A stretch of 64,000 nt of DNA. Source: a virus. Lineage: Duplodnaviria; Caudoviricetes. A program made the position numbers and the translations under genes. Numbering within the stretch: position 1 is the first letter of the stretch; every line of letters begins with the position of its first letter. Positions 47,933 through 64,000 of this stretch are shown one piece after another. A model generated the notes under the pieces. It had not been told where the DNA came from. It made no database searches and was given only the letters and a program-made list of their open reading frames with translations. Location: positions 138,815 to 202,814 of IMG/VR virus record IMGVR_UViG_3300031669_005479. One strand, written 5' to 3'.

Positions 47933-47950
47933 AATTATATTTAGATTATA

Positions 47951-48418
47951 TTATTTGTTGAAATTTAATGTGCAGGTATTTGTGCTAAAATCAAATTCTA
48001 AATCCTTAACAAATAAACCGCTACCATACATAAGTGCAATATCCTCTGGAACCTTAAATTTCCATTGAAAATCACCTATTTGTTTCACACTACCATTTGA
48101 TTCTGGAACAACCGCATCGCTTTGTTTATCACGAAATTCTAGCAAATATTGACCTTCGACACTTTCTCCAACAACAATAAAATTTTCAATACCTGCATTA
48201 TTAATTCTAAATCCTGCTTTCCACGTTATTGTGATTTCAGCATTAATTATGTCGGCATCATAATCGCTAGAAAAATTTTCATAGTTATAGAAAAAAACGT
48301 TTGGGTGTAATATTGTTTGTTTAAATGTGAAATGATTGCTATCATTTGTTGTATTTTGATTTAAAAAATTTTGTACCTCTTCTGTTACAATATTTTTTGT
48401 TTTAAATTTATTTATCAT
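47951..48418 (-). CDS. hypothetical late protein
   Basis: AGTATTTAT upstream on the sense strand. Confidence 0.7.
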   Translation of the reverse strand: MINKFKTKNIVTEEVQNFLNQNTTNDSNHFTFKQTILHPNVFFYNYENFSSDYDADIINAEITITWKAGFRINNAGIENFIVVGESVEGQYLLEFRDKQSDAVVPESNGSVKQIGDFQWKFKVPEDIALMYGSGLFVKDLEFDFSTNTCTLNFNK

Positions 48419-48484
48419 ATTTGTGATTTTTCATAAATACTATATTCTATTCAAATTGTTTTGTATATTTGTAAAAAAAAGTAA

Positions 48485-49021
48485 ATGCATAACATTATTG
48501 AACAGGAATATAGTTCAGCAAAAACATCAATAAAACAAATTCCAGCTGGTGTTAATATTATTGATAAATATTTTGGTTGGAAGCCCAATACAATTAATTT
48601 GGATATTGGTGGTGGAAAATATGAGTTAATGACAGAGAATTTACATGAGAAGCATGTTTTGAATTTAGTTTATGATCCCTATAATAGAAGCATTGCACAC
48701 AATCAAATGGTTTTAACGGCATGTAAATCACTTGTAATAGATACTGTAACCATATTTAATGTGCTGAATGTTATTAAGGAGCGTGAAATTCAAATAGAGG
48801 TGATTAATCTTGCATTAGCGATGCTTAAAATGAACGGTATGTTATTTGTCAGGTCAACATATATGAATAAAAATAAGGTGTCTGGCGTAACAAAATTGGG
48901 CACATTTCAGCATCACATGAAGCAATCAGAGTATCTTAAGATAGTTCAGAATGTTTTTCCAAATGCTGAGTTAAATCATGGAATAATCTTTGCAAAAAAG
49001 TTATCCAACATAGTAACATAA
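48485..49021 (+). CDS. class I SAM-dependent methyltransferase-like protein
   Basis: NLDIGGGKY, VYDPYN, DTVTIFNVLNVI. Confidence 0.7.
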   Translation: MHNIIEQEYSSAKTSIKQIPAGVNIIDKYFGWKPNTINLDIGGGKYELMTENLHEKHVLNLVYDPYNRSIAHNQMVLTACKSLVIDTVTIFNVLNVIKEREIQIEVINLALAMLKMNGMLFVRSTYMNKNKVSGVTKLGTFQHHMKQSEYLKIVQNVFPNAELNHGIIFAKKLSNIVT

Positions 49022-49065
49022 AGTAAAAATATTCGTATAATTAGTAAATTATAATTCTTACTATA

Positions 49066-50151
49066 ATGGAAATGTTAAAAAAGGTTGATTGGAATTTGTT
49101 GAATACTTATATTGATAATAGTCATATTGTAGCAAATAAACACCCACAATATGATATTTGGATATTGAACTATTCACCAAAGGCACAATCTAATAAATTT
49201 TGGGATATATATACCCTATCTTGTCGTGGATTGGTGATTGATGTCGATGGTAATATATTAGCACGTCCATTTCAAAAATTTAAAAATTATGAAGAGCATA
49301 ATCCATCAGAAATCGATATGTCACAAGAATTTGATATTTTCGAAAAAATGGACGGTTCGTTAATCATAGTATTTTACTATGTGCCACGTATGGAATGGAT
49401 TGTCGCTTCAAGAGGTTCATTCATTTCTGAACAGTGTATGGAAGCAAAGAAAATGATTGATGTAAATATTTACAATAAACTTAAAACTGATTGTACATAT
49501 TTATTTGAAGTAATATATCCAGAAAATAGAATTGTTCTTGACTATGGAAATAGAAGAGAATTGGTATTGCTTACAAGGATTAAAACTGAATCTGGTATGG
49601 AAATGTACTATGATGATTTAGTTGCAACATATTCAAAATACTTTACTGTTGTAAAGAAATACATACTAAATGATATTCATGACCTAAATGATTTAAAAGC
49701 AATTGAAGAGGAAAACAAAGAAGGATTTGTTGTTAGATTCTTAAGTGGATTTAGAGTTAAGGTGAAATTTAGCGAATACATTAGATTGCATGGTATTTTA
49801 ACAAATGTTTCTAATCTAACTGTTTGGGAACACTTAAAAAATAATTATGATTTCGATGATTTGTTGGATAGAGTTCCAGATGAATTCTACAGTTGGCTGA
49901 AAAGAACAGTAAGGATATTACAAGGAGAATTCAATGAAATTGAAAGATTGGCGTTGAAGGATTTTGTAAGAATTTACTATACTAATGGAGTCACAGAACG
50001 CAAAGAATTTGCAATGGAAGCAATTAAAACTGAACATCGTTCAATACTGTTTAGATTGTACGATAAAAGAGGTTATGATGAAATTATTTGGAAACTGGTG
50101 AGACCAATATATTCAAAGCCATTTTCTAAAAATTTTGAAAATATTTCATAA
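49066..50151 (+). CDS. RNA ligase (T4 Rnl1/RnlA-like)
   Basis: CRGLV, RPFQKFKNY, EKMDGS (motif I), ASRGSF, YLFEVI, EGFVV, RVKVK. Confidence 0.9.
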   Translation: MEMLKKVDWNLLNTYIDNSHIVANKHPQYDIWILNYSPKAQSNKFWDIYTLSCRGLVIDVDGNILARPFQKFKNYEEHNPSEIDMSQEFDIFEKMDGSLIIVFYYVPRMEWIVASRGSFISEQCMEAKKMIDVNIYNKLKTDCTYLFEVIYPENRIVLDYGNRRELVLLTRIKTESGMEMYYDDLVATYSKYFTVVKKYILNDIHDLNDLKAIEEENKEGFVVRFLSGFRVKVKFSEYIRLHGILTNVSNLTVWEHLKNNYDFDDLLDRVPDEFYSWLKRTVRILQGEFNEIERLALKDFVRIYYTNGVTERKEFAMEAIKTEHRSILFRLYDKRGYDEIIWKLVRPIYSKPFSKNFENIS

Positions 50152-50162
50152 AAAATTAAATT

Positions 50163-50396
50163 ATGGGTGGAATATTAGAAAAGAAAGAAAATGGATGGTA
50201 TGTTAGATGGTCAGACCTACATTCATTTATCAATGGAACGCATTGGATGTGCACACCATTACATCCAACAGAAATTGTTGATGAAACAAAATATAGTGAT
50301 GGTGATGAAGTAGAATTTGAAATGGTTGTTACTACTGGTTACGATGTAGAAAATTTCATTCCATTTAGATATGTTAAACTCTTAAAACAAAAATAA
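50163..50396 (+). CDS. hypothetical protein
   Basis: 77-aa ORF. Confidence 0.6.
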   Translation: MGGILEKKENGWYVRWSDLHSFINGTHWMCTPLHPTEIVDETKYSDGDEVEFEMVVTTGYDVENFIPFRYVKLLKQK

Positions 50397-50440
50397 TATT
50401 TTATTTGTGGTAGTACTAGTATTTTTAATTAAATAATTAT

Positions 50441-50632
50441 ATGATGAAAGAAAGATATATGATTGTGAGAATAGTGAATATTCTTGCAGAAATGAAAGAT
50501 AATGGTTCGATGATAACTGAACCATGTTATCAAATAGTTGATAAAGATTATGAGACACCAGATTCTGCTTATAATGTTAAAGAAAATTATAGAGAACCGA
50601 AACACTATATCGTTGTACAATATTGGTGCTAA
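50441..50632 (+). CDS. cassette 1 hypothetical protein
   Basis: Stop codon TAA lies inside the GCTAAC box. Confidence 0.6.
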   Translation: MMKERYMIVRIVNILAEMKDNGSMITEPCYQIVDKDYETPDSAYNVKENYREPKHYIVVQYWC

Positions 50633-50758
50633 CGTCAAATGTATGGTTAGTGGCGAATTAGAAACCACAAACCTATCAAACTGAACAAAAGTAAGTAGAT
50701 AAAACAAATGTTAAACCACACACAAAACCGCCATTAACTATACATATTGTTAGGCGTA
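50627..50758. repeat. attC-like site 1
   Basis: TGCTAAC...ATGTATGGTTAGTGGCG / CGCCATTAACTATACAT...GTTAGGCGTA. Confidence 0.8.
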
Positions 50759-50780
50759 TGTGCTTTAAAATCATAAAAAT

Positions 50781-51200
50781 ATGAAATACGAATTAAGACA
50801 TCATTCATATAAACCAACTTTAGGAGGTAAAAGTGTTCTGTCGAATAAAACAATAAACGACCTTGGTGAAAGTGCATTATATTACGTAGGAACATTTAGT
50901 GAGTATAATCCATTGTATTTGGGAAACAATTCATTATTATATATAAGAAAAAACTGGACAACAGATGGGAATATACTGCACAAGATTAACTTAAAAGGAT
51001 TAAAATTTAAAGGCGGAATTAATCATTCTGGTTCTGGTATTTGCACTCATGGAGGATTCCAATTAACTAAACAAGATTTATTAAGAATTGCTAATGCTAT
51101 GGATGAAACAGATACCCTTGTTTTATCTGAAATCATACAAAAGACAGAGGAAGGAATTAAAATGTTCAAAGATGGACTAATAGAGGTTGTAGGTTCTTAG
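50781..51200 (+). CDS. cassette 2 hypothetical protein
   Basis: Flanked by GTTAGGCGTA and TACGCCTAAC. Confidence 0.7.
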   Translation: MKYELRHHSYKPTLGGKSVLSNKTINDLGESALYYVGTFSEYNPLYLGNNSLLYIRKNWTTDGNILHKINLKGLKFKGGINHSGSGICTHGGFQLTKQDLLRIANAMDETDTLVLSEIIQKTEEGIKMFKDGLIEVVGS

Positions 51201-51203
51201 CAT

Positions 51204-51301
51204 TACGCCTAACGATTGGGTATATACGAAGTACCCTAACTACAAACTTAAAAATTAGTACAAACCTTAATAGGGTATTTCGTATATACCTTGTTAGCAA
51301 A
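51204..51301. repeat. attC-like site 2
   Basis: GCCTAAC...GGTATATACGAAGTACCCTA / TAGGGTATTTCGTATATACC...GTTAGCAAA. Confidence 0.82.
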
Positions 51302-51312
51302 TCGTAAAAATT

Positions 51313-51453
51313 ATGCCAAGAGAACCACTACCATTAAAAAGAGAACATAAAGGCGATGTAACAATAAACATCGCAGATATATTTAGAAATCCTGAAATGC
51401 AAAAAGAAGCTATAAAAGGTTGCAAAAAACTTAAACCACGTAAACGTAAATAA
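51313..51453 (+). CDS. cassette 3 small protein (46 aa)
   Basis: MPREPLPLKREHKGDVTINIADIF...; flanked by GTTAGCAAA and TTTGCTAAC. Confidence 0.55.
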   Translation: MPREPLPLKREHKGDVTINIADIFRNPEMQKEAIKGCKKLKPRKRK

Positions 51454-51461
51454 TTTATATG

Positions 51462-51592
51462 TTTGCTAACGGTTTTAATATAAAACGTTGCAACATAAAG
51501 GTAAATACATGTAACAAAACTTGAAATTAAACGTATAATATAATAGAAACCACAACAGCAATGTTTTATATTTGTTGTTATAAACAGTTTCA
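51462..51592. repeat. attC-like site 3 (contains an ECF-like promoter)
   Basis: TGCTAAC...ATATAAAACGTTGC / GCAATGTTTTATAT...GTTATAAAC; TGTAAC-N16-CGTA at 51510-51535. Confidence 0.8.
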
Positions 51593-51610
51593 TCATTTAA
51601 TTTTTTTATT

Positions 51611-51775
51611 ATGAAAGAAGATAAAGTAATAAAAGCAATTGAAATATACATAAGAGAAACGGGTAATAAGTATGGTATAAGTTTAATTAAAAAATTAAAT
51701 GATTACATATACCAAATAAATGACCGAGAAATAAATATAAACACAAACTCTATTGGATACACAGATATTGAGTGA
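51611..51775 (+). CDS. cassette 4 small protein (54 aa)
   Basis: MKEDKVIKAIEIY...; flanked by GTTATAAACAGTTTCA and TGAAATTGTTTATAAC. Confidence 0.55.
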   Translation: MKEDKVIKAIEIYIRETGNKYGISLIKKLNDYIYQINDREININTNSIGYTDIE

Positions 51776-51910
51776 AATTGTTTATAACGTTGATTGTATG
51801 GCACGTTGCCACTACTAAGTTTAATTTGAAAAACAAAATATTATGATTACAGAAATAGAAAAATTGAAAAAACTACAGCAATGTGCTATACAATGTGTTA
51901 TGGCACGTAC
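51773..51910. repeat. attC-like site 4 (right arm is translated)
   Basis: TTATAAC...ATTGTATGGCACGTTGC / GCAATGTGCTATACAAT...GTTATGGCAC. Confidence 0.8.
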
Positions 51911-52151
51911 TTCTGATGCTGAATTAGCTACAAGAGCGACACGAGTTGGAGAGCTTCATTGTTTGCACATAGCAGCAACTATGAATATAGAAGAAACTGC
52001 CAAAAGCTTAACACAAATACTTGAATACAAACAAGAACTCGCAAAAGAGATGCTGCGGTGTTCGGACGAAAAAGCAACCGACCAATTAGCGGATGCAATT
52101 ACATATAGTGACGAAATGATTAAAAAGGTGCTTGGTATGTATGTGCCATAA
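51843..52151 (+). CDS. cassette 5 hypothetical protein
   Basis: Start lies inside the loop of site 4; stop in the CCATAAC box. Confidence 0.6.
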   Translation: MITEIEKLKKLQQCAIQCVMARTSDAELATRATRVGELHCLHIAATMNIEETAKSLTQILEYKQELAKEMLRCSDEKATDQLADAITYSDEMIKKVLGMYVP

Positions 52152-52435
52152 CGGCTGGCGGTATGGTGTCGGTTGCCGTTGAATAACCCACCGACTTTGA
52201 TTAAATGAACAAATGTTGAATAACTTAAATAGTGAGCGATTATGAAACAAGCGGAAATAGTAAAACAAAGATTAAATTACCACTTTAGAAAAACAGATGG
52301 TGGATGGTTAATACCAGAAAATATGCCATTTATGAATGAGTTTTTAAACGAGGTAAGTAAATTATGTGAATTAGCGAACGGTGCTGAACAAAGAGAAAGC
52401 AACTGCAATATACCGCTTGTTAGCACACGTTATTT
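52139..52435. repeat. attC-like site 5 with an expanded coding loop
   Basis: GCCATAAC...GCGGTAT...GGTTGC / GCAACT...ATACCGC..GTTAGCACAC; arms more than 200 nt apart. Confidence 0.7.
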
Positions 52436-52580
52436 TGCTAAAATTAAATACTACCCTTGCACGGGTGGAGAACCAATATGGACTGTTGATGAAGTAGATG
52501 CAACAAGTATCGAGCACGCTACCGAATTGTTTAATGATATATGGCACATGAACGCAGAAGTTAAATGCGTGTATAAATAA
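52242..52580 (+). CDS. cassette 6 hypothetical protein
   Basis: Reads through the right arm of site 5 (ESNCNIPLVSTR). Confidence 0.6.
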   Translation: MKQAEIVKQRLNYHFRKTDGGWLIPENMPFMNEFLNEVSKLCELANGAEQRESNCNIPLVSTRYFAKIKYYPCTGGEPIWTVDEVDATSIEHATELFNDIWHMNAEVKCVYK

Positions 52581-52680
52581 TGTGTGCTAACGGTTGGGTG
52601 TATGAGAAGGTTTGCTTAGATGAACTTTCAAATTACTACTAAACTTTATAGCAAACTTTCTTATACACCTTGTTATGCTC
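52575..52680. repeat. attC-like site 6
   Basis: GTGCTAAC...GGTGTATGAGAAGGTTTGCT / AGCAAACTTTCTTATACACC..GTTATGCTC. Confidence 0.82.
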
Positions 52681-52792
52681 TCGTGCCGACTTATTAACCA
52701 CAAATCTTAATTTGAAACACGAAATAAAAACAAAAAGAATTTTAGGGTGGATTTTTTAAAATTGAATATTTATATATATAAAACAAAAACCT

Positions 52793-53260
52793 ATGAGTGA
52801 AGATATACGTAAAATGATTGATAAGGTGAAAAACTTTAAGCAGTTTGTTAATGAGAATGTTGATAATTATTACACATTATATCATGGAACAAGTAGTGGT
52901 AGATTAGATTTTATTAAATCAAAACCAACCAAATTATTTTTAACTGATAGTGAAGATGTTGCAACATATTATGCTGCAAAAGGTGGTGAAGATTATTTTA
53001 TGACTAAAGAAATTGAATTTGAAAAACAATATGGCGAAACACCAGATGATTATTTTAACACACAAGAAAATGGCGAACTACCTATGTTTAAAGCATTATA
53101 TCCTAAAAATGAAACCCCAATTGTTATAAAATTTCAAATACCTAAAAGTTTAATTAAAAACATTAATGATTTTATTGGATATAAAGGTGGTGAATTATTA
53201 GTTGAACCAAATTATATTTCAGAAATTATTAGTATTGATTTTGATGATTTAGATTATTAA
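52793..53260 (+). CDS. cassette 7 protein, putative ADP-ribosyltransferase-fold with late-type leader
   Basis: MSEDIRKMIDKVKNFKQFVNE leader, LYHGTS...LFLTDSEDVATYYA; own TATTTATA motif. Confidence 0.55.
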   Translation: MSEDIRKMIDKVKNFKQFVNENVDNYYTLYHGTSSGRLDFIKSKPTKLFLTDSEDVATYYAAKGGEDYFMTKEIEFEKQYGETPDDYFNTQENGELPMFKALYPKNETPIVIKFQIPKSLIKNINDFIGYKGGELLVEPNYISEIISIDFDDLDY

Positions 53261-53329
53261 AAAGTGCGTAGGGAAATTCTTTTTGTTTTTCATCACGAAA
53301 CTCAAATTGAAACACAGAACTAAGGCATG

Positions 53330-53461
53330 GAGCATAACGGCTGCGTGTATGAAACGTTGCCATCACAGAAGTAAATAGAATGAATAAAATTATAAATTTA
53401 GTATAAACTTAAAAAAGACCACGAAAGGCAATGTTTTATACACGTTGTTATGTGGCGTTAA
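53330..53461. repeat. attC-like site 7
   Basis: GAGCATAAC...CGTGTATGAAACGTTGCC / GGCAATGTTTTATACACG..GTTATGTGGC. Confidence 0.82.
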
Positions 53462-53466
53462 TTATT

Positions 53467-53700
53467 ATGACACCAAAAAAAATTGAAACGTATGTAGATT
53501 TACCTGAATATGGTAAGTATGTACTTGTAAGTGGAATTGACAAACGAATGTATGATACTCGTAGATGGCACGTTTGTGAAATGAATGATTTGGAAGATGG
53601 ATTAGATTATCGTGATAAAGGTCAATTTTTTTGGCTTACCGAGAACGGAACTAAAATTGAAGAAGTAACACATTGGTGCGAGTTACCACCTCTTCTTTAA
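53467..53700 (+). CDS. cassette 8 hypothetical protein (DUF551-like)
   Basis: DLPEYGKYVLV...VTHWCELP; flanked by GTTATGTGGCGTTAA and TTAATGCCACATAAC. Confidence 0.65.
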   Translation: MTPKKIETYVDLPEYGKYVLVSGIDKRMYDTRRWHVCEMNDLEDGLDYRDKGQFFWLTENGTKIEEVTHWCELPPLL

Positions 53701-53771
53701 TGCCACATAACTCGTTTATATATGCACCTATTTACTAAGTAAGTGTCTGATAATCATTAAATAAATTAGTA

Positions 53772-54005
53772 ATGGCTAATGAAATAATTGGTATGTGGAT
53801 ACTTAGATATGATGATTGGTATTTAATCATTACATCTGATAAGAAAGTGTTTGACGTTAAAACAAAAAAACAACTTATTGAGTATTGGAATAATGGAACC
53901 ATTGCGTATAGATTACCATGTTCAACCAAGAAAATAGGAATTAAAACAATCAATAAGTATTGCATAAAAAGTACGGTTGTATTGCAAGAATTTTGCCCAT
54001 TTTAA
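53772..54005 (+). CDS. hypothetical protein
   Basis: 77-aa ORF. Confidence 0.55.
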   Translation: MANEIIGMWILRYDDWYLIITSDKKVFDVKTKKQLIEYWNNGTIAYRLPCSTKKIGIKTINKYCIKSTVVLQEFCPF

Positions 54006-54022
54006 AAATAATTACAAATTTT

Positions 54023-54064
54023 TGTAACATTTTGTTGTTTATTACGTATTTATACTTATATTTG
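54023..54064 (+). promoter_or_regulatory. stacked promoters of tRNA cluster 3
   Basis: TGTAAC-N16-CGTA, GTATTTAT and GTTG-N19-TATATTTG all overlap here. Confidence 0.75.
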
Positions 54065-54101
54065 TAATCTGAAAAACAAACAAAATTAAAACAATAGAAC
54101 A

Positions 54102-54194
54102 ATGAGAACTTTTGGTAAATATTATTTTAGTAAAAAATCATATAAGAAACAACTTATAGGAATCGGGAATAGTATGTCCAAAAGAAAATCATAA
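54102..54194 (+). CDS. attenuator leader peptide 3 (Lys/Tyr-rich)
   Basis: MRTFGKYYFSKKSYKKQLIGIGNSMSKRKS; AATCGGG complementary to the terminator 5' arm. Confidence 0.83.
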   Translation: MRTFGKYYFSKKSYKKQLIGIGNSMSKRKS

Positions 54195-54214
54195 TGATTT
54201 TGGAATTAAACCAT

Positions 54215-54245
54215 AAAAACCCGATTCGAAAGTTTCGGGTTTTTT
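54215..54245 (+). terminator. attenuator terminator 3
   Basis: AAAAACCCGA-ttcgaaagtt-TCGGGTTTTTT. Confidence 0.9.
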
Positions 54246-54263
54246 ATTTTTTAAAAGTGAAAT

Positions 54264-54350
54264 GTACCTATGGCTCAATTGGTAGAGCAACTGGCTTTTA
54301 ACCAGTGGGGTTGCTAACGCACGTTGAGGGTTCGAGTCCCTCTGGGTACA
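54264..54350 (+). tRNA. non-canonical tRNA-Lys(TTT) with a 19-nt variable region
   Basis: GTACCTA/TGGGTAC, ACTGG-CTTTTAA-CCAGT, variable region GGGGTTGCTAACGCACGTT. Confidence 0.88.
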
Positions 54351-54355
54351 CAAAT

Positions 54356-54428
54356 ATCTCAGTAGCTTAGTTGGTAGAGTAGGTGTCTCTTAAACATCGG
54401 GTCATGGGTTCGAATCCCATCTGAGGTA
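54356..54428 (+). tRNA. tRNA-Lys(CTT)
   Basis: ATCTCAG/CTGAGGT, GGTGT-CTCTTAA-ACATC. Confidence 0.92.
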
Positions 54429-54434
54429 CAATTT

Positions 54435-54503
54435 GGGAGTAATTCTTTGGAGAAACCAGCTCTGTAAAAGCTCACATAGTGGGTTCGATGCCCTCTACTC
54501 CCA
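54435..54503 (+). tRNA. minimal tRNA-Tyr(GTA) with no long V-arm and a 4-nt D-loop
   Basis: GGGAGTA/TACTCCC, TTCT-TTGG-AGAA, AGCT-CTGTAAA-AGCT, GGTTCGATGCC. Confidence 0.75.
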
Positions 54504-54797
54504 CTTATTTTAGTATCAATAGTTTCCAACACCTTTAATGGATTCTAGTTTAATCGAATGCACAAAAGGGGCAATTGTTTAAAAACGATTGCCTTTTTTA
54601 TTTTCGAATGTATTTCAATGTAACGTTTTGCCATTTCCATTTCAAATATTCAGTACGATTGAGGTCTTGAATTTCTTCACGAATTATCGAAATCACACTA
54701 CTCATGATTAAATTTTTTTATTCTAAATAACCTTGCACTTTAATTAAAAATGAATTATCTTTGTGCAAAATAACTTTATGCTTAAATAATTTAATAA

Positions 54798-55544
54798 ATG
54801 GCAGAGAAGAAAAAGAAGGTAACCACTACTGTTACCACTACAGTTACCGAAGAAATCATCGGTAATTCAATTAACGAAAAAACACAAATTATTTGTATTC
54901 TTGATAGAAGTGGTTCAATGTCAAGTATTATGAGTGATAGTATTGGTGGATTCAATACGTTTCTAAAACAGCAAAAAGAACTACCTGATGATGCAGCACT
55001 AACAGTTGCGTTGTTTGACGATAAATACGAATTGCTTTATGATAACATTGACATTAAAAAGGTCAAAGAACTAACAAAAAAAGAATGGTTTCCTCGTGGC
55101 ACAACTGCATTGTATGATGCAATTGGTAAAACAATCAATACTGTCAGAACAAATCGTGAGCATTTGGGTGATGAAAAACCAACCAAAGTATTGGTATGTA
55201 TTGTAACAGATGGTCTTGAAAATGCAAGCAAGGAATACAGAATTTCCGAAATTAAGGAACTCATAAAAAATTGTGAAAAAGATGACTGGAATTTTATATA
55301 TCTTGCTGCAAATCAAGATGCATTTGATATTGGTAGTTCATTTGGTATAAGTGGTAGCAATACGTATACATATACTGCTTCGGCAGCGGGTGTGTATAAT
55401 ATGTCAAACACATTAAATGCTTCTGCATCCACATATCGAAGCATGAGCATGTTTGATGCAGATTTTGATAAAAAATCAAAATCTTTGATAAATGATTATA
55501 GTGGAAGCGCAATACCCACTATTCTTACTAAAGATACGAAATAA
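54798..55544 (+). CDS. von Willebrand factor A domain protein
   Basis: ILDRSGSM (DxSxS MIDAS), GTTALYDA, IVTDGLENAS. Confidence 0.9.
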   Translation: MAEKKKKVTTTVTTTVTEEIIGNSINEKTQIICILDRSGSMSSIMSDSIGGFNTFLKQQKELPDDAALTVALFDDKYELLYDNIDIKKVKELTKKEWFPRGTTALYDAIGKTINTVRTNREHLGDEKPTKVLVCIVTDGLENASKEYRISEIKELIKNCEKDDWNFIYLAANQDAFDIGSSFGISGSNTYTYTASAAGVYNMSNTLNASASTYRSMSMFDADFDKKSKSLINDYSGSAIPTILTKDTK

Positions 55545-55745
55545 TTTTCCTTTTTTTTATTATATTTTTTTCTTTATTTATGGGAGCAAATTGCTCCCAT
55601 TTTTTATTAAAAGTTTGTGAATGAATTTGTTGAAAAATTTTCAAAAATATAACATTTTTTCATAATAAAAATCAATAATACCTTGTATTTATGATGGACA
55701 AACAATATATTTGTAAACATAATTTTTATAAAAAATTTTTAATTT

Positions 55746-58700
55746 ATGACAAATAATATTCTTAAAAGTTTTCCCAAACAAGAGGTGGAAAAAGCAGCAT
55801 TACAATACTTTAAAGGTGATGAGTTAGCAGCAGACGTTTGGATTAAAAAATACTGTTTAAAGGATGAAAATAACTTTTATGAATTGACTCCCGATGACAT
55901 GCATCGAAGAATTGCAAAAGAAATTGCAAGAATTGAAGCAAAATATATAAATCCGCTTTCCGAAGACCAGATTTACGAAACACTAAAAAATTTTAAAAGA
56001 ATTGTGCCACAAGGCAGTCCAATGTCAGGAATTGGTAATAATTTTCAGGTAGTTTCGCTAGGAAATTGTTTTGTTGTTGGTAATGATGCTGATTCATATG
56101 GTGGAATTATTCGAATTGATGAGGAGCAAACACAATTAATGAAGCGTAGAGGTGGTGTTGGTCATGATTTGTCGATGATCAGACCAAATATGACACCAGT
56201 AAAAAACAGTGCAATTACTTCTACAGGTATCGTTCCCTTCATGGAAAGATATTCGAATAGCACAAAAGAGGTTGCACAGGATGGACGACGTGGTGCATTA
56301 ATGTTATCCGTGTCAATAAAACATCCTGATGCAGAATCGTTTATTGATGCAAAATTATTACAGGGAAAAATATCTGGTGCAAATATTTCGGTAAGAATTG
56401 ATGATGAGTTCATGAATTCGGCATTAAATGAAAAATCATATAATCAACAATATCCAATTGATGGTATCGCCAAGTATCAAAAAGAAATTGATGCATCAAA
56501 ACTTTGGAAAAAAATTGTTCACAATGCTTGGAAATCTGCCGAACCTGGTATTCTTTTTTGGGATAAAATTCTAAATGAATCAATACCTTCATGCTATGGT
56601 AAAAAATGGGTTGAAAAAAGCACAAATCCATGTGTCAGTGAAGATACATTAATATTGACAGATGATGGATATCTACCGATCAAAGAATTGGTTGGTAAAA
56701 AGGTTAATGTTTGGAACGGTGAAGAGTTTTCCGAAACCATTCCAGCAATAACTGGATATAATCAAAAAATGATTAAAATAAAATTTTCTGATGGTAGTGA
56801 ATTAAAATGTACACCATATCATAAATTCTACACTTGGAAAGGTTTTGAACGTGATGGAAAGGTAATAAAAAAGAACGGAAATGAACTTATTGTTGGTGAT
56901 AAGTTGGAAAAATATAAATTTCCAAAATTAAAACGAGATTTGAGCACTGGCCATCATATTTACATATCGACTGATAATATTGGCAATGGCTACATAACAA
57001 ATAAGGAATTTTATACTGCAGGTTTTTTTGCTGGTGACGGACATATTAAAAGAAATGATGAGTATATGATTTCATTATATGGAGTAAAAAAAGAATTAAT
57101 ACCATATTTGGAAATTATTGGTAATGAATCTGAGGATATTGCTAACGATAAAATTACGGTAAGAATAAATTTACCAGAATATTTTAAATTTAGTCCTCAA
57201 AACATACCAATTAAAAAAATAATACCAATCTATGAAAAGGGGATGCCTGAATTAGATGTGTTGAATTGGTTGGCTGGTTTAATCGATTCTGACGGTTCAC
57301 GTAATTCTGATAAAGGGTCAATATCAATTTCTTCAATAGATAAAAACTTCTTAATGCAAATTAAACTAAATATATTAAATACGTTTGGTATTAATGGAAG
57401 TGTTATTGATGAAAAGAATGGCGGTATTAAGAAAATTAAGGGAATTGAATATGAAACAAATAAATCATATAGACTAATAATTAGCGCACATAATGTTAAA
57501 AAATTATATGATTTAGGTTTAAGAACACATAGAGTTAAAATCGATGATGTTAATCCAAATCGTGATGCATCTCGATTTATAACTGTTGAATCAATTGAAT
57601 CTATCGATGATGCAGACGTTGTATATTGTTTTACTGAAGAAAAACGTGGGAGAGGTTGCTTTAATGGCGTGGTTACTGGACAATGTGGCGAATTGCCGTT
57701 GCCACCATATGATTCATGTAGATTGGTGTGCATGAATTTATATGGTTACGTTGTAAATCCTTTTACAGTAAATGCGTATTTTGATGAGGAAGCATTTAGT
57801 AGAGATGTACAGATTGCTATGAGGTATATGGATGATATTGTAGACCTAGAAGTTGAAAAAATCGATACTATTTTATTGAAAATTCAATCCGACCCAGAAT
57901 CAGACGAAATTAAGTTAGTTGAAAAGAATTTATGGGAAAAAATTCGTGGTATGGCACTTGAAGGTAGGAGAACTGGCTTAGGCGTTACTGCAGAAGGAGA
58001 TATGCTTGCCGCACTTGGCTTACGATATGGTACAGAAGAGGCGACAATATTCAGTGAAAATGTGCATAAGGGACTTAAATTAAACGCATATCGCTCATCA
58101 GTTACAATGGCTAAAGAACGTGGTGCTTTTCCAATTTATAATCATAATTTAGAATCAAGCAATCCGTTTATATTAAGAATTTTAGAAGAAGACCCACAAT
58201 TACATTACGATATGTGGACTTATGGTCGTAGAAATATTGCACTGCTAACTATTGCACCAACTGGTAGTGCAAGCTTAATGACACAAACAACATCAGGCAT
58301 TGAACCAGCATTTTTACCTGTTTATATGCGTAGACGTAAGATTAATCCACAAGAAAAGGATGTTCGTGTGGATTTTATTGATGATGAGGGTATTTCATGG
58401 ATGCAATATCCAGTATTTCATCATAAGTTTGAAATATGGTTAGAAGTTGAGGGATATGATGTTAATGTTGTTAAAACCATGAGCAAAGAACAACTTGACG
58501 AAATTGTGAAGAAATCACCCTATTATAAAGCAACATCAAATGACGTTGATTGGGTGATGAAAGTTATAATGCAAGGTAAAATACAAAAACATATTGACCA
58601 TAGCATTTCTGTTACGGTTAATCTTCCAGAATCGGTGAGTGAAGAAACTGTTGCAAAAGTATATGAAACTGGTTGGAAATCTGGTTGCAAAGGCATTACT

Positions 58701-59354
58701 GTTTATCGTGATGGTAGTAGAAATGGTGTACTTGTTGGTGCAGAAGATAATAAAAAAGAAAATTTTCACGAGAATCACACACCCAAAAGACCAAAAAGAT
58801 TGAAGGGTGAAATTCACAAATTTCAAAATAATTTGGAAAAATGGATTGCCGTTGTTGGCCTACGTGATGGTAGACCATATGAAATTTTCACTGGAAGACT
58901 TGAAAATGGATTAAGTAAATTACCTCCAAACATTAAAGACTGTGAAGTTGTTAAACAAATATTTGAAGTAGAGGAAATGGATGAGGATGGTAAAATGATT
59001 AAAGTTAGAAAAAAAAGATACGATATTGAATATATTGATAGTAATGGCGAAAAACAAATACATACTGGTTTAAACCACGCATTTAATCCTGAATATTGGA
59101 ACTATGCAAAACTTTTTTCAGGTGTACTTCGACATGGTATGCCAATTATTTATGTCTATCAACTAATTAATTCTATGAATCTAAATAGTGATCATTTGAA
59201 TACGTGGAAAAATGGCGTTGCACGTACAATAAAAAAGTACATTAAGGACGGTGAAAAAATTGAAGGTAAATGTCCTGAATGTGGTAGTGAACATTTAGAA
59301 TTTAAAGAGGGATGTTTAATCTGTATGTCCTGTGGTAGTTCAAAATGTAACTAA
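55746..59354 (+). CDS. nrdJ: class II (adenosylcobalamin-dependent) ribonucleotide reductase with intein
   Basis: SLGNCFV, RRGGVG, TNP/CGE active site split by the intein, RRTGLG, TIAPTG, KGITVYRDGS, C-terminal CPECG...CMSCG. Confidence 0.92.
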   Translation: MTNNILKSFPKQEVEKAALQYFKGDELAADVWIKKYCLKDENNFYELTPDDMHRRIAKEIARIEAKYINPLSEDQIYETLKNFKRIVPQGSPMSGIGNNFQVVSLGNCFVVGNDADSYGGIIRIDEEQTQLMKRRGGVGHDLSMIRPNMTPVKNSAITSTGIVPFMERYSNSTKEVAQDGRRGALMLSVSIKHPDAESFIDAKLLQGKISGANISVRIDDEFMNSALNEKSYNQQYPIDGIAKYQKEIDASKLWKKIVHNAWKSAEPGILFWDKILNESIPSCYGKKWVEKSTNPCVSEDTLILTDDGYLPIKELVGKKVNVWNGEEFSETIPAITGYNQKMIKIKFSDGSELKCTPYHKFYTWKGFERDGKVIKKNGNELIVGDKLEKYKFPKLKRDLSTGHHIYISTDNIGNGYITNKEFYTAGFFAGDGHIKRNDEYMISLYGVKKELIPYLEIIGNESEDIANDKITVRINLPEYFKFSPQNIPIKKIIPIYEKGMPELDVLNWLAGLIDSDGSRNSDKGSISISSIDKNFLMQIKLNILNTFGINGSVIDEKNGGIKKIKGIEYETNKSYRLIISAHNVKKLYDLGLRTHRVKIDDVNPNRDASRFITVESIESIDDADVVYCFTEEKRGRGCFNGVVTGQCGELPLPPYDSCRLVCMNLYGYVVNPFTVNAYFDEEAFSRDVQIAMRYMDDIVDLEVEKIDTILLKIQSDPESDEIKLVEKNLWEKIRGMALEGRRTGLGVTAEGDMLAALGLRYGTEEATIFSENVHKGLKLNAYRSSVTMAKERGAFPIYNHNLESSNPFILRILEEDPQLHYDMWTYGRRNIALLTIAPTGSASLMTQTTSGIEPAFLPVYMRRRKINPQEKDVRVDFIDDEGISWMQYPVFHHKFEIWLEVEGYDVNVVKTMSKEQLDEIVKKSPYYKATSNDVDWVMKVIMQGKIQKHIDHSISVTVNLPESVSEETVAKVYETGWKSGCKGITVYRDGSRNGVLVGAEDNKKENFHENHTPKRPKRLKGEIHKFQNNLEKWIAVVGLRDGRPYEIFTGRLENGLSKLPPNIKDCEVVKQIFEVEEMDEDGKMIKVRKKRYDIEYIDSNGEKQIHTGLNHAFNPEYWNYAKLFSGVLRHGMPIIYVYQLINSMNLNSDHLNTWKNGVARTIKKYIKDGEKIEGKCPECGSEHLEFKEGCLICMSCGSSKCN
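56631..57683 (+). mobile_element. Gln-terminal LAGLIDADG intein (351 aa) at the RNR active-site Cys
   Basis: Starts CVSEDT, ends GVVTGQ followed by Cys; motifs AGFFAGDG and LAGLIDSDG. Confidence 0.92.
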
Positions 59355-59560
59355 GATAATCCGCATCTAACACATTTTAAACATCCTCAATATGTATAAC
59401 AATTATTGAGGATGTTTTATTTTATTTTACTGAAATGTGAAATATCACAAGTATTTTTCAAAATACTTGTAAATTAAAAATTTTGTAGTATTTTTGTCAC
59501 GATTTAGTTATTATAAGTTTAATTGAATCGTAAAAATAATTTTATTTAATATACAATAAA

Positions 59561-59731
59561 ATGACTAAAAAAGTAATTATTAATACATTGTACGAAAAAA
59601 GAGGCAAAGCAATTCCTACAATAGAGAATACAAGCATATCAACAATAACAAATAATAATTCCGAAACAAATAATAATTCCGAAACAAATAATAATACTCA
59701 AACTAACGATAATTCAACAAAAGATGAATGA
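59561..59731 (+). CDS. small Asn/Thr-rich protein with an 18-bp tandem repeat
   Basis: 56-aa ORF after a CTTG...TATTTTTG promoter; its TGA stop overlaps the next gene. Confidence 0.45.
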   Translation: MTKKVIINTLYEKRGKAIPTIENTSISTITNNNSETNNNSETNNNTQTNDNSTKDE

Positions 59732-60113
59732 TGATGAAAAAATGGAACGTGCGTTAAATGTATATGATAAACTTAATGAATTTCATGACAATTTAGTTAC
59801 TAAATTTATTTATGGATTATCAATTGTTGCAATTATTGCAGTTCCTTCGTTTATTAATAAAAAATTCCAATTTAATGCTGCTCAAGAAATATTGGTAAGG
59901 TTTTATTTGATATTAACTTCAATCAATATAATACTTTTGATTTTATCTACATTTCTTAGTAATGTTGCATCATTTAAAAATTGTGAAAAAAGGTTAGATG
60001 TCTGTTCCCATAAAGTTTTTAATTGGTTTATTAAATTTTTTAATGGTTTTTATACATTTGGAACTATTGCTGACATAATATTATTATGTTTCATTATATT
60101 AACGTTATTATAA
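59724..60113 (+). CDS. membrane protein (3 predicted TM segments)
   Basis: Three hydrophobic stretches. Confidence 0.65.
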   Translation: MNDDEKMERALNVYDKLNEFHDNLVTKFIYGLSIVAIIAVPSFINKKFQFNAAQEILVRFYLILTSINIILLILSTFLSNVASFKNCEKRLDVCSHKVFNWFIKFFNGFYTFGTIADIILLCFIILTLL

Positions 60114-60212
60114 TATATGAATATTTATATTCACAGAAACGTAACATTTATTATTACCATTCGTATAACTAATATTGAAAATCAAATAACTGTAAAAATA
60201 AATTGAATTGAA

Positions 60213-62480
60213 ATGAAAAAAAGTGTAAAACTTAGTGAAAATTATTATCTTACTACACAGGAAGTTAATAGTAATGCAGCAGTAAGTGTTGCAAAGAGGA
60301 CAAATCATATTTTTGTGGTTGATGTGTCGGGTTCCATGTCATATGAACTCCCTTTAATTAGAACACAGTTGAAGAATAAACTTTCCAATCTAATGAAGGA
60401 TGGAGATACAATTTCAATTGTATGGTTTTCTGGTGGTAGAGATGCTGGAATCCTAAAAGAAGAGGTTGAAGTAAAATCATTAAAAACCCTTAGTGACCTA
60501 AACGATGCTATTGATAAATGGCTACGTCCAGTTGGATTAACTGCGTTTTTAAAGCCACTTCAATTGGTTAAAGAACTGGTTGATAGAATTCAAAAAAATA
60601 GACCAGATTCTGTATTCTCCATGATTTTCTTAACAGATGGTTATAACAATGACTGTCCTTGGAATGAGGTTATTTCTACGCTAAAAACTCTGGAAAATGA
60701 TATCGCTTCTTCAACATTTGTTGAATATGGTTATTATGCGGATTCCAGAAAATTGACTGAAATGGCAAGTGTTCTCGGTGGTGAAAAAATTAGTTGTGAT
60801 GGCTTTGATGAATTCGAACCAATGTTTGATGCTAAGATATCAACAAGTGCACATGGTGGAAAAAAGTCTGTTGTTGAAATCGAAGATAAGTATCTCTATG
60901 ACTTTGCGTTCTCTGCAAGTAATGGTTCAGTATTGCTATATAACATTGTTGATGGCAAAATCCTAGTTGGTGCAGACGTAAATGAAATTCATTTCTTTTC
61001 TTCAAGTGCCATTGGTAGTGATGCAGGAAATGCTGCAACCGATACAAGTCTTTATGCAGCAATTTATGTGCTTTCTGATAAGCTATTAAATGATGATGCC
61101 GAAAAGGTCTTTTATGCGCTAGGTGATCAGCATTATTATCAAATGCTTGTTAATGCATTTGGAAAGCAAAAACTCAATGCATTTAAATCAGCAATTAAGG
61201 AATGTGTTGGTGATGTATCTAAGAGATTCCCTACTGGTGGCCGTAGCCAAATTAAAGCGGTTCCAGATGATGCATATTGCCTTATGAACCTTATTGAAGA
61301 TTTAGGAAATAGTGAGAGTTGTCTGTTTTACCCAAATCATTCAGAATTTGTTTACAATAGAATTGGTAGGAAAAAACTTGCTGCAGCAACAGTTCTCACG
61401 GAAACTGAGAAAAAAAGAATTGCGGAAGCAAAAAATCTTGACGAGATTAATAAAATTACTGCAGAACTTGCAGAAAGTAAAGTTGATGTTAAGTTCGTTA
61501 ATAGTAATCCAGATAGAGGTTATCCACTTACTGATTTAGTATGGAATAAAAGTCGTGCAAATCTTAGCATTCGCATCTATATTGAAGGCGATGCAATTCT
61601 TCCTAAGAATAAATTCAATATCGATAAGGTAAGTTCTTTCAAGTATAATACATTTACCTTAATAAAAGACGGTATTGTTAATGTTAGTAAACTTCCAGTA
61701 TCATATTCATTGGAATTGATTGATTTGTTAAACGCCAAAAATGTAAAGTATAGCATTTATAAAGGCACTACAGATAATGACCCTTTCGATAATACAATTG
61801 TCATAGACCTCGCCAGTTTACCAATCGTAAATAGGAGTATGGTGAAAGCAGTTTCTGCCAATGCTTTAGCAAAACAGGAGCAAGAACTTCTGGTAATACA
61901 AGCCAATAAGAAGGTATATGACTATTATAAAAAACAATTTTATCCTAAAACTAGTAAGTCATTTGTTGATATGCTTGGTCAGGAAGTTGCAGATTGGTTA
62001 AAAGAAATCGGCATCACGGATTTCAATGGTTTCGCACCAAAAGTAATTTCGGAAGAATCGACAGACTTTTATATGTCAGTTAACCTTATGACTAAAATAA
62101 GAGGTTTATCTTCATTACCAAAAGTAGAGGATGTTGTTGCTAAAATAAAAAGTGGGGTGTCGTTAAAATTAAATGAATGGATTATGTCTGATGCAATAAT
62201 TAAATATATTGCACAAACCGAAGGGGAAATGTTTCAATCGCTATCGAAAGACCAACAAGATGCAATGCTTAAAACTTATTTGGAAACAAAATCAAATATT
62301 TTGGATAAACAAAGAAGAAAAATCATGCAAGCAATCGCAGAAATAAAATTCAGTCTCATACTTTCAAAAAGATGGTTTAAAGAATTTAAATCATTTGATG
62401 AAAATAAATTAACTTTAAATATTGATGGACGTGATTTTGAATTTTCGTTTGAACTTAACGAAGAACAGGAATTAGTATAG
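60213..62480 (+). CDS. large vWA domain protein
   Basis: FVVDVSGSM MIDAS, IFLTDGYNN. Confidence 0.85.
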   Translation: MKKSVKLSENYYLTTQEVNSNAAVSVAKRTNHIFVVDVSGSMSYELPLIRTQLKNKLSNLMKDGDTISIVWFSGGRDAGILKEEVEVKSLKTLSDLNDAIDKWLRPVGLTAFLKPLQLVKELVDRIQKNRPDSVFSMIFLTDGYNNDCPWNEVISTLKTLENDIASSTFVEYGYYADSRKLTEMASVLGGEKISCDGFDEFEPMFDAKISTSAHGGKKSVVEIEDKYLYDFAFSASNGSVLLYNIVDGKILVGADVNEIHFFSSSAIGSDAGNAATDTSLYAAIYVLSDKLLNDDAEKVFYALGDQHYYQMLVNAFGKQKLNAFKSAIKECVGDVSKRFPTGGRSQIKAVPDDAYCLMNLIEDLGNSESCLFYPNHSEFVYNRIGRKKLAAATVLTETEKKRIAEAKNLDEINKITAELAESKVDVKFVNSNPDRGYPLTDLVWNKSRANLSIRIYIEGDAILPKNKFNIDKVSSFKYNTFTLIKDGIVNVSKLPVSYSLELIDLLNAKNVKYSIYKGTTDNDPFDNTIVIDLASLPIVNRSMVKAVSANALAKQEQELLVIQANKKVYDYYKKQFYPKTSKSFVDMLGQEVADWLKEIGITDFNGFAPKVISEESTDFYMSVNLMTKIRGLSSLPKVEDVVAKIKSGVSLKLNEWIMSDAIIKYIAQTEGEMFQSLSKDQQDAMLKTYLETKSNILDKQRRKIMQAIAEIKFSLILSKRWFKEFKSFDENKLTLNIDGRDFEFSFELNEEQELV

Positions 62481-62591
62481 TATTCTTATCATCATAAAAA
62501 ATTCTCAGAATTTCTGAGAATTTTTTATGTAAATTTTACACATTTTTAAACTTATTTGGACATTTAACGTATTTATAATAAATGTTTATTT

Positions 62592-62777
62592 ATGGAACTA
62601 ATATCGATTAGTAAAGCAAGTAAAATCTTAGGTGTCACGCAAAAAACATTAAGAGTTTGGGAAAGGGATGGTGATATTATAGCATTTTACACACCTAAAG
62701 GTCATAGAAGATATAACTATGATTACATTATTGATTTAAGTAAAAATGGAAAAAAATCAGCGCAATCATTGGACTAA
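62592..62777 (+). CDS. MerR-type HTH (IS607 TnpA N-terminus-like)
   Basis: ISKASKILGVTQKTLRVWER...TPKGHRRY. Confidence 0.8.
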   Translation: MELISISKASKILGVTQKTLRVWERDGDIIAFYTPKGHRRYNYDYIIDLSKNGKKSAQSLD

Positions 62778-63672
62778 AGAACGCTGTGCTATTGAGGCGT
62801 TGAAATATAGTACCAGAAGTGATTTTTGGAAATATTCTAAATCAGCATATAATGCATCAATTAGAAATAAGTGGTTAAACGAAATTTCTTATCACATGCA
62901 CAGTAAATTAGTTGTATGGGATAGAGAAAATTGTCACCAAGAAGCATTGAAATACAAAACAAGAAGTGAATTTAATAGGTATTCATTAAATGCATATCGT
63001 TATGCATTGAAAGAACATCTTCTTGATGAAATATGTTCTCACATGATAGTTATTGGTAATAAAAAGAAAAGATGTATTTACGTATTTGAATTTGGTGACA
63101 ATTTTGCTTATGTTGGATTGACATACAATACCAATAAGCGAATCGTTGAACATTTAAGTACCAGAAATTCACAAGTATATAAACACGTTCAAACCACTAA
63201 TTTAACACCAGTATTTAAACAATTAACAGATTATCTTGATGTTAGTGATGCGATGATAAAAGAAAATGATTATTTAACACAATATGAGAATAATGGATGG
63301 AAATTATTAAATAAAGCAAAAACTGGAGCATTGGGTGGTAATGAAGTTTATTGGACTATTAAAAAATGTCATGAAGAGGCGTTAAAATACGAAAAAAAAT
63401 ATGAATTTATGAAGGGCACTCCAGCAGCATACAGTGCTGCATATAAAAACGGATGGCTGGTTGAAATTTGTGAACATATGATTGAATCATATAAGCCAGA
63501 TGGATATTGGAATATTGATAAATGTCATGAAGATGCATTAAAATATGATAAAAGAAATATCTATCAACATAAATCAAAATCTTCATACAATACCGCATTA
63601 AGGAACGGTTGGCTCGATGAAATCTGTCAACACATGCCAATACGCAGTAAAAAACATAAAAATGATAAATAA
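62746..63672 (+). CDS. GIY-YIG endonuclease flanked by repeated helical modules
   Basis: CIYVFEF...AYVGLT; repeated WTKERC..EALKY..R..F...Y..A...WL.EIC.HM modules. Confidence 0.83.
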   Translation: MEKNQRNHWTKERCAIEALKYSTRSDFWKYSKSAYNASIRNKWLNEISYHMHSKLVVWDRENCHQEALKYKTRSEFNRYSLNAYRYALKEHLLDEICSHMIVIGNKKKRCIYVFEFGDNFAYVGLTYNTNKRIVEHLSTRNSQVYKHVQTTNLTPVFKQLTDYLDVSDAMIKENDYLTQYENNGWKLLNKAKTGALGGNEVYWTIKKCHEEALKYEKKYEFMKGTPAAYSAAYKNGWLVEICEHMIESYKPDGYWNIDKCHEDALKYDKRNIYQHKSKSSYNTALRNGWLDEICQHMPIRSKKHKNDK

Positions 63673-63738
63673 TTTCAATTTTTTAAATTATTGGTTTTCA
63701 ACCAACTAAAAATTATTTTTATTTTTTTTTAAAAATAG

Positions 63739-63776
63739 TTTGCAATTATTGTAACATTTTATACCTTTGCAACGTA
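63739..63776 (+). promoter_or_regulatory. overlapping primary-sigma and ECF-like promoters of leader 4
   Basis: TTTG-N19-TACCTTTG plus TGTAAC-N17-CGTA; near copy of 43897-43934. Confidence 0.8.
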
Positions 63777-63821
63777 TTTAGATGAAAGTAGATTTGAATT
63801 ATAACTTTTAATTTTAAAAAA

Positions 63822-63944
63822 ATGAAAACACGAACAACAAATATTACCATTAGCACATCGATTATTAGTCGTAATGGAAGTTCTATATTCTGTTCAAATT
63901 TTACAGGCAGAAATATTGATGTTATCGGGTTATGGTTTTCATAA
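63822..63944 (+). CDS. attenuator leader peptide 4 (Thr/Ile/Ser/Arg/Asn/Gly/Phe/Cys)
   Basis: MKTRTTNITISTSIISRNGSSIFCSNFTGRNIDVIGLWFS; ATCGGGTT complementary to the terminator 5' arm. Confidence 0.8.
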   Translation: MKTRTTNITISTSIISRNGSSIFCSNFTGRNIDVIGLWFS

Positions 63945-63968
63945 AAGTAAAAGAAAACTAATAAAGTC

Positions 63969-64000
63969 AAAAACCCGATTCGAAAGATTCGGGTTTTTTT
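63969..64000 (+). terminator. attenuator terminator 4
   Basis: AAAAACCCGA-ttcgaaagat-TCGGGTTTTTTT. Confidence 0.9.

Follow-up and report, generated by a model that had tools for sequence, protein, structure and literature searches.

A short open reading frame, placed between a promoter-like block and an intrinsic terminator, lies at the very end of a linear virus record. The DNA analysed here, which we call the window, is a stretch of 64,000 nucleotides (positions 138,815 to 202,814) of the IMG/VR record IMGVR_UViG_3300031669_005479, a linear contig of 202,814 bp with an estimated completeness of 66%. The end of the window is the 3′ terminus of that contig, so that the sequence beyond the terminator is absent from the record. 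On the + strand, leader ORF 4 (63822-63944) begins with ATG behind an A-rich stretch and comprises 40 codons followed by TAA. It encodes the peptide MKTRTTNITISTSIISRNGSSIFCSNFTGRNIDVIGLWFS. Codons 3 to 32 (63828-63917), which we name the sampler region, belong exclusively to Thr, Arg, Asn, Ile, Ser, Gly, Phe and Cys. An earlier note on this DNA had drawn attention to this restriction, and the count is right: 30 residues out of 30 are in the set. Taking the record's 134 long ORFs as background, these eight amino acids account for a share of 0.454 of residues, so that the chance of such a run is approximately 0.454^30 = 5e-11.

The frame carries a coding signature. It is kept in 12 or more relatives (described below), where most variation falls at third codon positions. 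In an alignment of 12 leaders of this family, column entropy reaches 0.96 at the third position against 0.61 and 0.71 at the first and second. In the conserved core, SRNGxSIFCSNF.GRN, the corresponding values are 0.67 against 0.34 and 0.44. Insertions and deletions in the sampler come as multiples of three. Its N-terminal part cannot be aligned across lineages, yet it stays within the set of eight: what is conserved there is a composition, not a sequence. A gene on the minus strand over leader 4 was also considered and discarded: stop-free stretches of 45-78 codons do exist in the relatives, in frames that vary, and substitutions favour the sense frame. None of the four leader peptides of this phage matched a Pfam or NCBIfam family at E-values up to 1, and an exact-pattern scan of viral contigs, leaving aside the window's own record, yielded no match for the opening of leader 4.

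The 3′ part of the ORF and the spacer behind it contain complementary strands that could make up a switch. Strand A (ATCGGGTT, 63924-63931) sits inside codons 35-37 and can pair with strand B (AACCCGAT, 63972-63979) in an antiterminator of -12.0 kcal/mol. Strand B, made of the 5′ arm of the terminator and its A-flank, is common to the antiterminator and the terminator. The latter is a GC-rich hairpin, CCCGATTC-GAAA-GATTCGGG (63974-63993), the 3′ arm of which we call strand C; it is followed by a run of seven T (63994-64000). That the window ends in this T-run had been seen before, and the same bases also end the contig. The terminator had further been described as a near copy of the terminator of the third unit, and CCCGATTCGAAAGATTCGGG with its T7 indeed agrees with it at 97% over 31 nt. 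Between strands A and B, folding predicts a small internal hairpin (GGTTTTC / GAAAACT, 63934-63959) that encloses the stop codon (63942-63944), and which a ribosome standing at this codon might melt.

On the 5′ side, the ORF starts 52 nt after a promoter-like block, TTTG-N19-TACCTTTG (63739-63769, + strand), which has the -33/-7 look of Bacteroidota promoters and is identical to 43897-43927, in front of leader 2. The resemblance between the two blocks, already remarked upon, extends to 84% identity over about 100 nt around a 31-nt core, TTTGCAATTATTGTAACATTTTATACCTTTG, that is the same in both. Because the Bacteroidota pattern TTTG-N17-21-TANNTTTG is not in itself enriched in the window (7 occurrences found for 6.2 expected), we only infer a promoter function, from the conserved copy and from its position. 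Four wastewater runs labelled RNA-Seq, looked at over 39600-54600, were not retained as evidence of transcription: they are probably DNA, their short contigs including promoter DNA. A look for RNA data sets containing 60000-64000 or 43880-45360 turned up none.

All four leader units of the window share this layout of promoter-like block, short ORF and terminator, and every one of them carries, in the 3′ part of its ORF, a copy of the 3′ arm of its terminator – strand A – able to pair with strand B. Leader unit 1 (39815-39950, + strand, as are all the units and blocks listed here) has the ORF MKNLTHTQPQPKQQPQIVEWGSYA, strand A GAATGGGG at 39869-39876 and a terminator at 39922-39943 with its T-run. 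It stands before tRNA block 1 (40007-41482), with two tRNA genes for Pro, one for His and three for Gln. Leader unit 2 (43976-44130) has the ORF MKNLLDILMATLVEVLLWADAEDKLRTVG, a hydrophobic peptide, with a strand A, GTCGGG, that overlaps the stop codon, and a terminator at 44100-44123, again with a T-run. Block 2 (44170-47640) follows, with Asp, two Glu, Val, three Leu, Ala and Trp up to 45351, then Leu-CAA at 47128 and Met-CAT at 47569. Leader unit 3 (54102-54245) has the ORF MRTFGKYYFSKKSYKKQLIGIGNSMSKRKS, strand A GAATCGGG at 54160-54167 and a terminator at 54220-54239 with T-run; in block 3 (54264-54504) come Lys-TTT, Lys-CTT and a weak candidate for Tyr-GTA. From T-run to first tRNA the distances are short, 57, 40 and 19 nt in units 1 to 3 and 25-60 nt in most relatives, which argues for co-transcription of leader and tRNA genes.

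Two details of these units deserve mention in their own right. The Lys-TTT tRNA (54264-54351), 88 nt long, has a long variable arm of class-II appearance, and Lys-TTT tRNAs of 83-86 nt recur in the related loci L006, L013 and L017. In unit 2, the spacer between stop codon and terminator (44075-44090) contains a conserved motif, ACACTCCTTTCTT, found at the same place in eight relatives, with a partner AAGAAA a few bases after it; this motif resembles the anti-Shine-Dalgarno region, at the 3′ end of 16S rRNA.

The earlier note had held that exactly eight amino acids are left without a tRNA gene in the first three blocks, provided that the CAU tRNA is Met, and that the four leaders partition the twenty amino acids. 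With default settings ARAGORN leaves ten amino acids uncovered, block 1 being then restricted to two Pro and three Gln. A His-GTG gene at 40753-40824 is recovered by Rfam (36.3 bits for a threshold of 29), as well as by ARAGORN at a lowered threshold, and this part of the count stands. The Tyr part depends on a weak call, the Tyr-GTA candidate at 54435-54504, which has a poor D arm and is returned by ARAGORN only under relaxed conditions (-ps90); clear Tyr tRNAs are present in block 3 of relatives. Together with the fourth block described in the next paragraph, the tRNA blocks partition the twenty amino acids into {P,H,Q}, {D,E,V,L,A,W,M}, {K,Y} and {T,C,N,I,S,F,G,R}. For the leaders themselves, the partition is clean in leader 4 and approximate in leaders 2 and 3, where out-of-set residues (I, T and K in the former; F, G, S and T in the latter) lie in or near the sampler.

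What lies beyond the terminator of unit 4 could be read in an independent assembly. A metagenomic contig of 87.8 kb (ENA ERZ27256847:k141_781582, hereafter L043) was found because it encodes, letter for letter, the protein of a GIY-YIG ORF located at 62746-63669 of the window. Over window positions 52728-64000 the alignment shows a single 18-nt indel and not one mismatch, and the contig continues for 9.7 kb past the end of the window. Since it reproduces the final 4,336 nt (59665-64000) without any difference, L043 is the same phage. Searching the sequence directly past 64000 with ARAGORN, as had been proposed, reveals 16 tRNA genes with 14 anticodons, spread from 252 nt to 4 kb past the terminator. 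They are, in order, Cys-GCA, Asn-GTT, Ile-GAT, Ser-TGA, Ser-GCT, Phe-GAA twice, Gly-TCC, Ile-TAT, Asn-GTT, Thr-TGT, Arg-TCT, Arg-CCT, Arg-TCG, Arg-ACG and Gly-GCC, that is, one Cys, two each of Asn, Ile, Ser, Phe and Gly, one Thr and four Arg. The prediction that leader 4 announces a tRNA cluster for its own eight amino acids is thus borne out in full: eight of the eight are covered, and no tRNA falls outside the set. Every gene in this stretch is on the + strand, and no terminator-like hairpin was detected on that strand between the tRNAs, save one inside a tRNA gene.

The match goes down to the anticodons. Leader 4 samples 13 of the 14 downstream anticodons at least once; the one missed is that of Arg-CCT, whose codon AGG is also read by Arg-TCT. 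With strict wobble rules, 28 of the 30 sampler codons are readable by the tRNAs of block 4, and the two others, ACC and TCT, match Thr-GGT and Ser-GGA tRNAs present in relatives. Several relatives have their Thr-GGT gene in the interval that separates the terminator from the first tRNA (Cys), an interval which in this phage consists of 252 nt without detectable tRNA (L043:11256-11506). Leader 4 has kept one ACC codon, which under strict wobble only a tRNA of the Thr-GGT type would read.

Further along L043, 1.8 kb after block 4 and behind nine small ORFs, stands the only other tRNA of this stretch, at 17062-17134 (about 5.8 kb past the end of the window). Its anticodon is CTA, as in amber suppressors, and ARAGORN labels it Pyl. 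A CTA tRNA also follows block 4 in most of the complete relatives, at the same relative place in G001-G004. Recoding of TAG was considered as an explanation and gave no signal: TAG ends 30 of the 149 long ORFs of the 203-kb record, and ORFs are lengthened less by taking TAG as sense than by taking TGA as sense.

Relatives were sought with the VWA-domain protein encoded 1.3 kb upstream of leader 4. This retrieved 20 IMG/VR loci, with 63-78% amino-acid identity, several of them from complete genomes of 325-365 kb. Among cultured phages, the best tblastn matches were at most 32% identical (50,697 phage records), so that none of them is close enough to serve as a model. In the relatives the VWA gene is separated from leader 4 by a few hundred bases. 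In this phage alone, a MerR-like small ORF and the GIY-YIG endonuclease-like ORF are lodged between the two (62592-63672). Because the relatives run directly from VWA gene to leader, this insert looks like a mobile insertion; used as a query, the GIY-YIG protein found no relatives, and its gene is absent from the related loci.

Past the syntenic VWA gene of 14 non-duplicate loci, 171 of 180 tRNA calls belong to the set of eight. Most of the exceptions have a CAT anticodon and may be Ile2; the others are one Pro, one CTA and two with odd anticodon loops. Where the region could be extended, in ten relatives, the same four blocks come in the same order, {Pro, His, Gln}, {Asp, Glu, Val, Leu, Ala, Trp, then Leu and Met}, {Lys, Tyr} and {Thr ... 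Gly}. A homologous leader stands before each block, the four leader families being kept in up to 15 genomes. Their consensus sequences are MKNL.H.QPQPQQHPQ..EWG.Y. for family 1, MKK.LDIL....V.LLWADAED.L..VG for family 2, M.TFGTYYYGKKSYKK... for family 3 and MKT...(T/S/I/N-rich)...SRNGNSIFCSNF.GRN... for family 4. In 41 curated leaders, amino acids from the set of the block behind account for a fraction of 0.39, 0.71, 0.33 and 0.83 of the residues in leaders 1 to 4, for backgrounds of 0.08, 0.34, 0.13 and 0.45. The diagonal dominates this four-by-four matrix of leaders and blocks, and off-diagonal fractions are at or below background, except for leader 3 against set 4 (0.50 vs 0.45).

Codon choice adds to amino-acid composition in one genome. 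G002, the relative richest in tRNAs (65, many of them for GC-rich codons), has leaders that sample 18 of 19, 15 of 16 and 7 of 7 anticodons, above what synonymous recoding with the codon usage of the phage gives (P = 0.004, 0.013 and 0.041). G002 is the only genome where the choice of codons beats recoding; the others are indistinguishable from it. In G005 (L024, IMGVR_UViG_3300037424_001372), block 4 has lost its Phe and Arg tRNAs and contains Pro-TGG and two CAT tRNAs. Despite this new content its leader 4 is unchanged, still with F and R codons and without P. No other antiterminator is as weak as that of G005 (-8.6 kcal/mol), and the block-4 regulon of this genome may be decaying.

We now come to the RNA. 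In 40 of the 41 leaders the duplex of strands A and B has an energy between -10 and -22 kcal/mol, similar to the energies of the terminators themselves, and 33 of 41 rank among the strongest 2% when compared with windows drawn at random from the same DNA. Strands A and B taken from the same genome form stabler pairs than swapped ones (P = 0.013 for family 2, 0.036 for family 3, < 0.0002 for family 4 and < 0.0002 when pooled). Covariation was scored on an unfitted MAFFT alignment of the 41 leaders, with 500 shuffles and slid controls. The terminator is paired in 94% of cells and scores 0.154 against 0.064 in shuffles, none of the 500 being as high. The antiterminator also scores 0.154, against 0.072 in shuffles, again with none of 500 as high and with all slid controls lower. 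Five of its eight pairs have double-sided changes, and 27 cells are changed on both sides for 11.7 in the comparison; its cells are paired in 66% of cases, a figure lowered by a one-column misregister of some rows. An example is leader 1 of G002, where the terminator reads CCCCG...CGGGG in place of CCCCA...TGGGG, strand A GAACGGGG in place of GAATGGGG, and the tail of the peptide has Arg for Trp. The two structures exclude each other in the predicted folds: the minimum free energy structure of the leader-4 transcript cut before strand C is A:B, and that of the full transcript is the terminator.

A first way to account for these elements without regulation would be a constitutive terminator or insulator, which ends transcription coming from upstream, the tRNA block having its own promoter and the short ORF no regulatory role. 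The 252-nt gap after the terminator of unit 4 could hold such a promoter, in this phage. Against this reading, T-run and first tRNA are only 19-60 nt apart in the three other units and in most relatives. The ORF, with its composition and strand A, has been conserved and changes together with the terminator, and strand A is missing from ordinary terminators of the same genome. Indeed, among the 26 terminator-like hairpins of the 203-kb record, the four that have the strongest upstream anti-terminator complement are those of the four tRNA leaders (-12.0 to -14.6, for a next best of -9.1 and a median of -4.0). A separate terminator scan, limited to loops of 3-8, overlooks the leader hairpins if their loop is counted as 10 nt. 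Finally, an ORF deprived of function would not have allowed one to predict the set of tRNAs downstream. We regard a constitutive terminator as improbable.

The switch might also be real and work without a ribosome, its helices being set by an uncharged tRNA, in the manner of T-boxes, or by a protein of the phage or its host, with the ORF being incidental. T-boxes are a precedent for an RNA that reads tRNA status directly, and alternative helices are not by themselves proof that a ribosome is involved. Against this, a single short RNA would need to read 14 different tRNAs. No T-box nor any other Rfam regulatory family was found in 39000-64000 at E-values up to 0.1. In the same search the T-box covariance model and the trp, his, thr, leu, ilv and phe leader families gave no match, the hits being of tRNA type or due to chance. 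The open frame, with its sampler indels in multiples of three and its variation at third positions, as well as an N-terminal part conserved in composition and not in sequence, fit decoding and not an RNA binding site. We give this possibility the same low credence as the preceding one. Lastly, that the short ORFs make functional small peptides, membrane or regulatory ones for instance, with a composition unrelated to tRNAs, has in its favour the hydrophobic leader 2 and the conserved sequence of the leader 4 core, and is nevertheless very hard to believe when four unrelated peptides without any family match each fit the amino-acid set of the block behind, when their N-terminal halves diverge freely inside that set, and when their C-terminal tails follow an RNA helix, as in the W to R change of G002 leader 1 that goes with CCCCA to CCCCG.

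We favour ribosome-mediated attenuation. Leader 4 has the structural features of the attenuators that use a leader peptide – a short ORF with an ATG start, codons matched to the genes behind, a terminator and a mutually exclusive antiterminator – and it is probably the sensor of a transcription attenuator that precedes the fourth tRNA operon. The giant phage that carries it is uncultured and probably infects a member of the Bacteroidota. This mechanism is well supported by comparative evidence at the level of sequence. It would work as follows. RNA polymerase would start from the promoter-like block, and ribosomes would translate the ORF of 40 codons. A ribosome that goes through codons 3-32 undelayed would cover strand A and melt the stop-codon hairpin at the time when the polymerase makes strands B and C; B would then pair with C, and the terminator would halt transcription before the tRNA genes. 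A ribosome delayed at a Thr, Arg, Asn, Ile, Ser, Gly, Phe or Cys codon, from codon 3 to about codon 29, would leave strand A free. The A:B duplex, formed first, would exclude the terminator, and the polymerase would continue into the 16 tRNA genes for these eight amino acids. The outcome would be negative feedback on the supply of usable block-4 tRNAs. The sister units would follow the same logic for {P,H,Q}, {D,E,V,L,A,W(,M)} and {K,Y}.

What the sequences show is the layout and its conservation, the coding signature, the agreement of codons with anticodons, the covariation of both helices and the identity of the genes behind. The promoter, translation of the ORF, co-transcription of the tRNA genes, the direction in which the switch works and its kinetics, and whether it answers to scarce tRNAs or to scarce amino acids, are the conditional parts of this scheme. 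Starvation for an amino acid would trip the switch as well as loss of a tRNA would. In family 3, about 24 nt lie between the end of strand A and the stop codon, so that it is less evident how a terminating ribosome would cover this strand. In the full-length fold of leader 4, strand A pairs weakly with AU-rich sequence at the 5′ side and no conserved partner equivalent to a strand 1 is seen; a leader that is not translated would therefore be expected to read through, making ON the default state. Also, with its 252-nt gap, unit 4 of this phage could have room for a second promoter.

Attenuators with a leader peptide are classical in enterobacteria, where they are represented by the leaders of ilvGMEDA (Ile/Leu/Val) and by thrL (Thr/Ile), trpL, hisL, pheL and leuL. 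A stall for lack of charged cognate tRNA results there in read-through. The phage units resemble ilvGMEDA and thrL in having a short leader rich in regulatory codons between a promoter – here a putative one – and an intrinsic terminator, and in the mutual exclusion of terminator and antiterminator, which overlaps the end of the ORF. They differ in that they precede tRNA genes and not biosynthetic enzymes, in that one leader tests as many as eight amino acids and some 14 isoacceptors, mostly through single or scattered codons and not runs, and in their three strands (A, B and C) with no evident strand 1. They are, besides, borne by a phage, in a host group where initiation is not led by Shine-Dalgarno sequences. 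A parallel in function is the pheM leader of Escherichia coli pheST, which encodes phenylalanyl-tRNA synthetase: there, attenuation applies to a gene of the translation apparatus, and the speed of decoding feeds back on its capacity. The phage units would likewise attenuate a translation component; unlike pheM, restricted to one synthetase and one amino acid, they would control tRNAs themselves, for many amino acids at once. T-box riboswitches, which also sense tRNA status and place an antiterminator/terminator switch before translation-related genes, bind a single uncharged tRNA through a specifier codon and the T-box sequence, without a ribosome. They are 200-300 nt long and are found mainly in Firmicutes. 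As for the genes controlled, their clustering is as in the tRNA region of T4, and clustered phage tRNA genes of this kind are thought to replace or supplement those of the host. Phage tRNAs can counter a host defence that cleaves tRNAs, namely AriB of the PARIS system (PMC12409363). Our search of the full-text literature retrieved no description of a leader peptide, or of any other demand-sensing control, for tRNA genes or clusters.

Phage tRNA genes are widely discussed as helpers of codon usage or as a counter to tRNA-targeting immunity, and the control of their expression is largely unknown. A codon-matched leader before each block would constitute a direct feedback from decoding speed to tRNA synthesis, extending classical attenuation from the supply of amino acids to that of tRNAs. 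If the scheme is true, these would be the first known tRNA genes under leader-peptide attenuation, and the first single leader to report on up to eight amino acids and some 14 isoacceptors. A still broader proposal, which we put forward tentatively and with somewhat more doubt than belief, is that this clade of giant phages carries a complete, self-regulating tRNA supply: four regulons, each switched on by its own multi-codon test peptide, and only at times when the matching tRNAs are scarce. Translation of the phage would then be independent of the tRNA pool of the host, and the phage would dispose of a block-by-block answer to tRNA-cleaving defences, or to its own degradation of host tRNAs. 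In practice, the rule that ties leader to block has predictive value, as it named the eight amino acids of a cluster of 16 genes that had not been seen. It could serve to annotate tRNA regulons and tRNA identities (the CAT tRNAs of block 4 as Ile2, for example), and to detect comparable units elsewhere among phages. The cassettes of leader and terminator, for their part, could be used as compact sensors of isoacceptor-specific decoding speed.

Two further features of the window, outside the leader units, may be recorded here. An intein that includes a LAGLIDADG homing endonuclease domain splits the large subunit of ribonucleotide reductase (55746-59354). Between 50400 and 53700, where short ORFs are separated by hairpins, the depth of contigs is very uneven and skipping joints are many (runs X10-X13), a pattern that fits a cassette content varying between strains.
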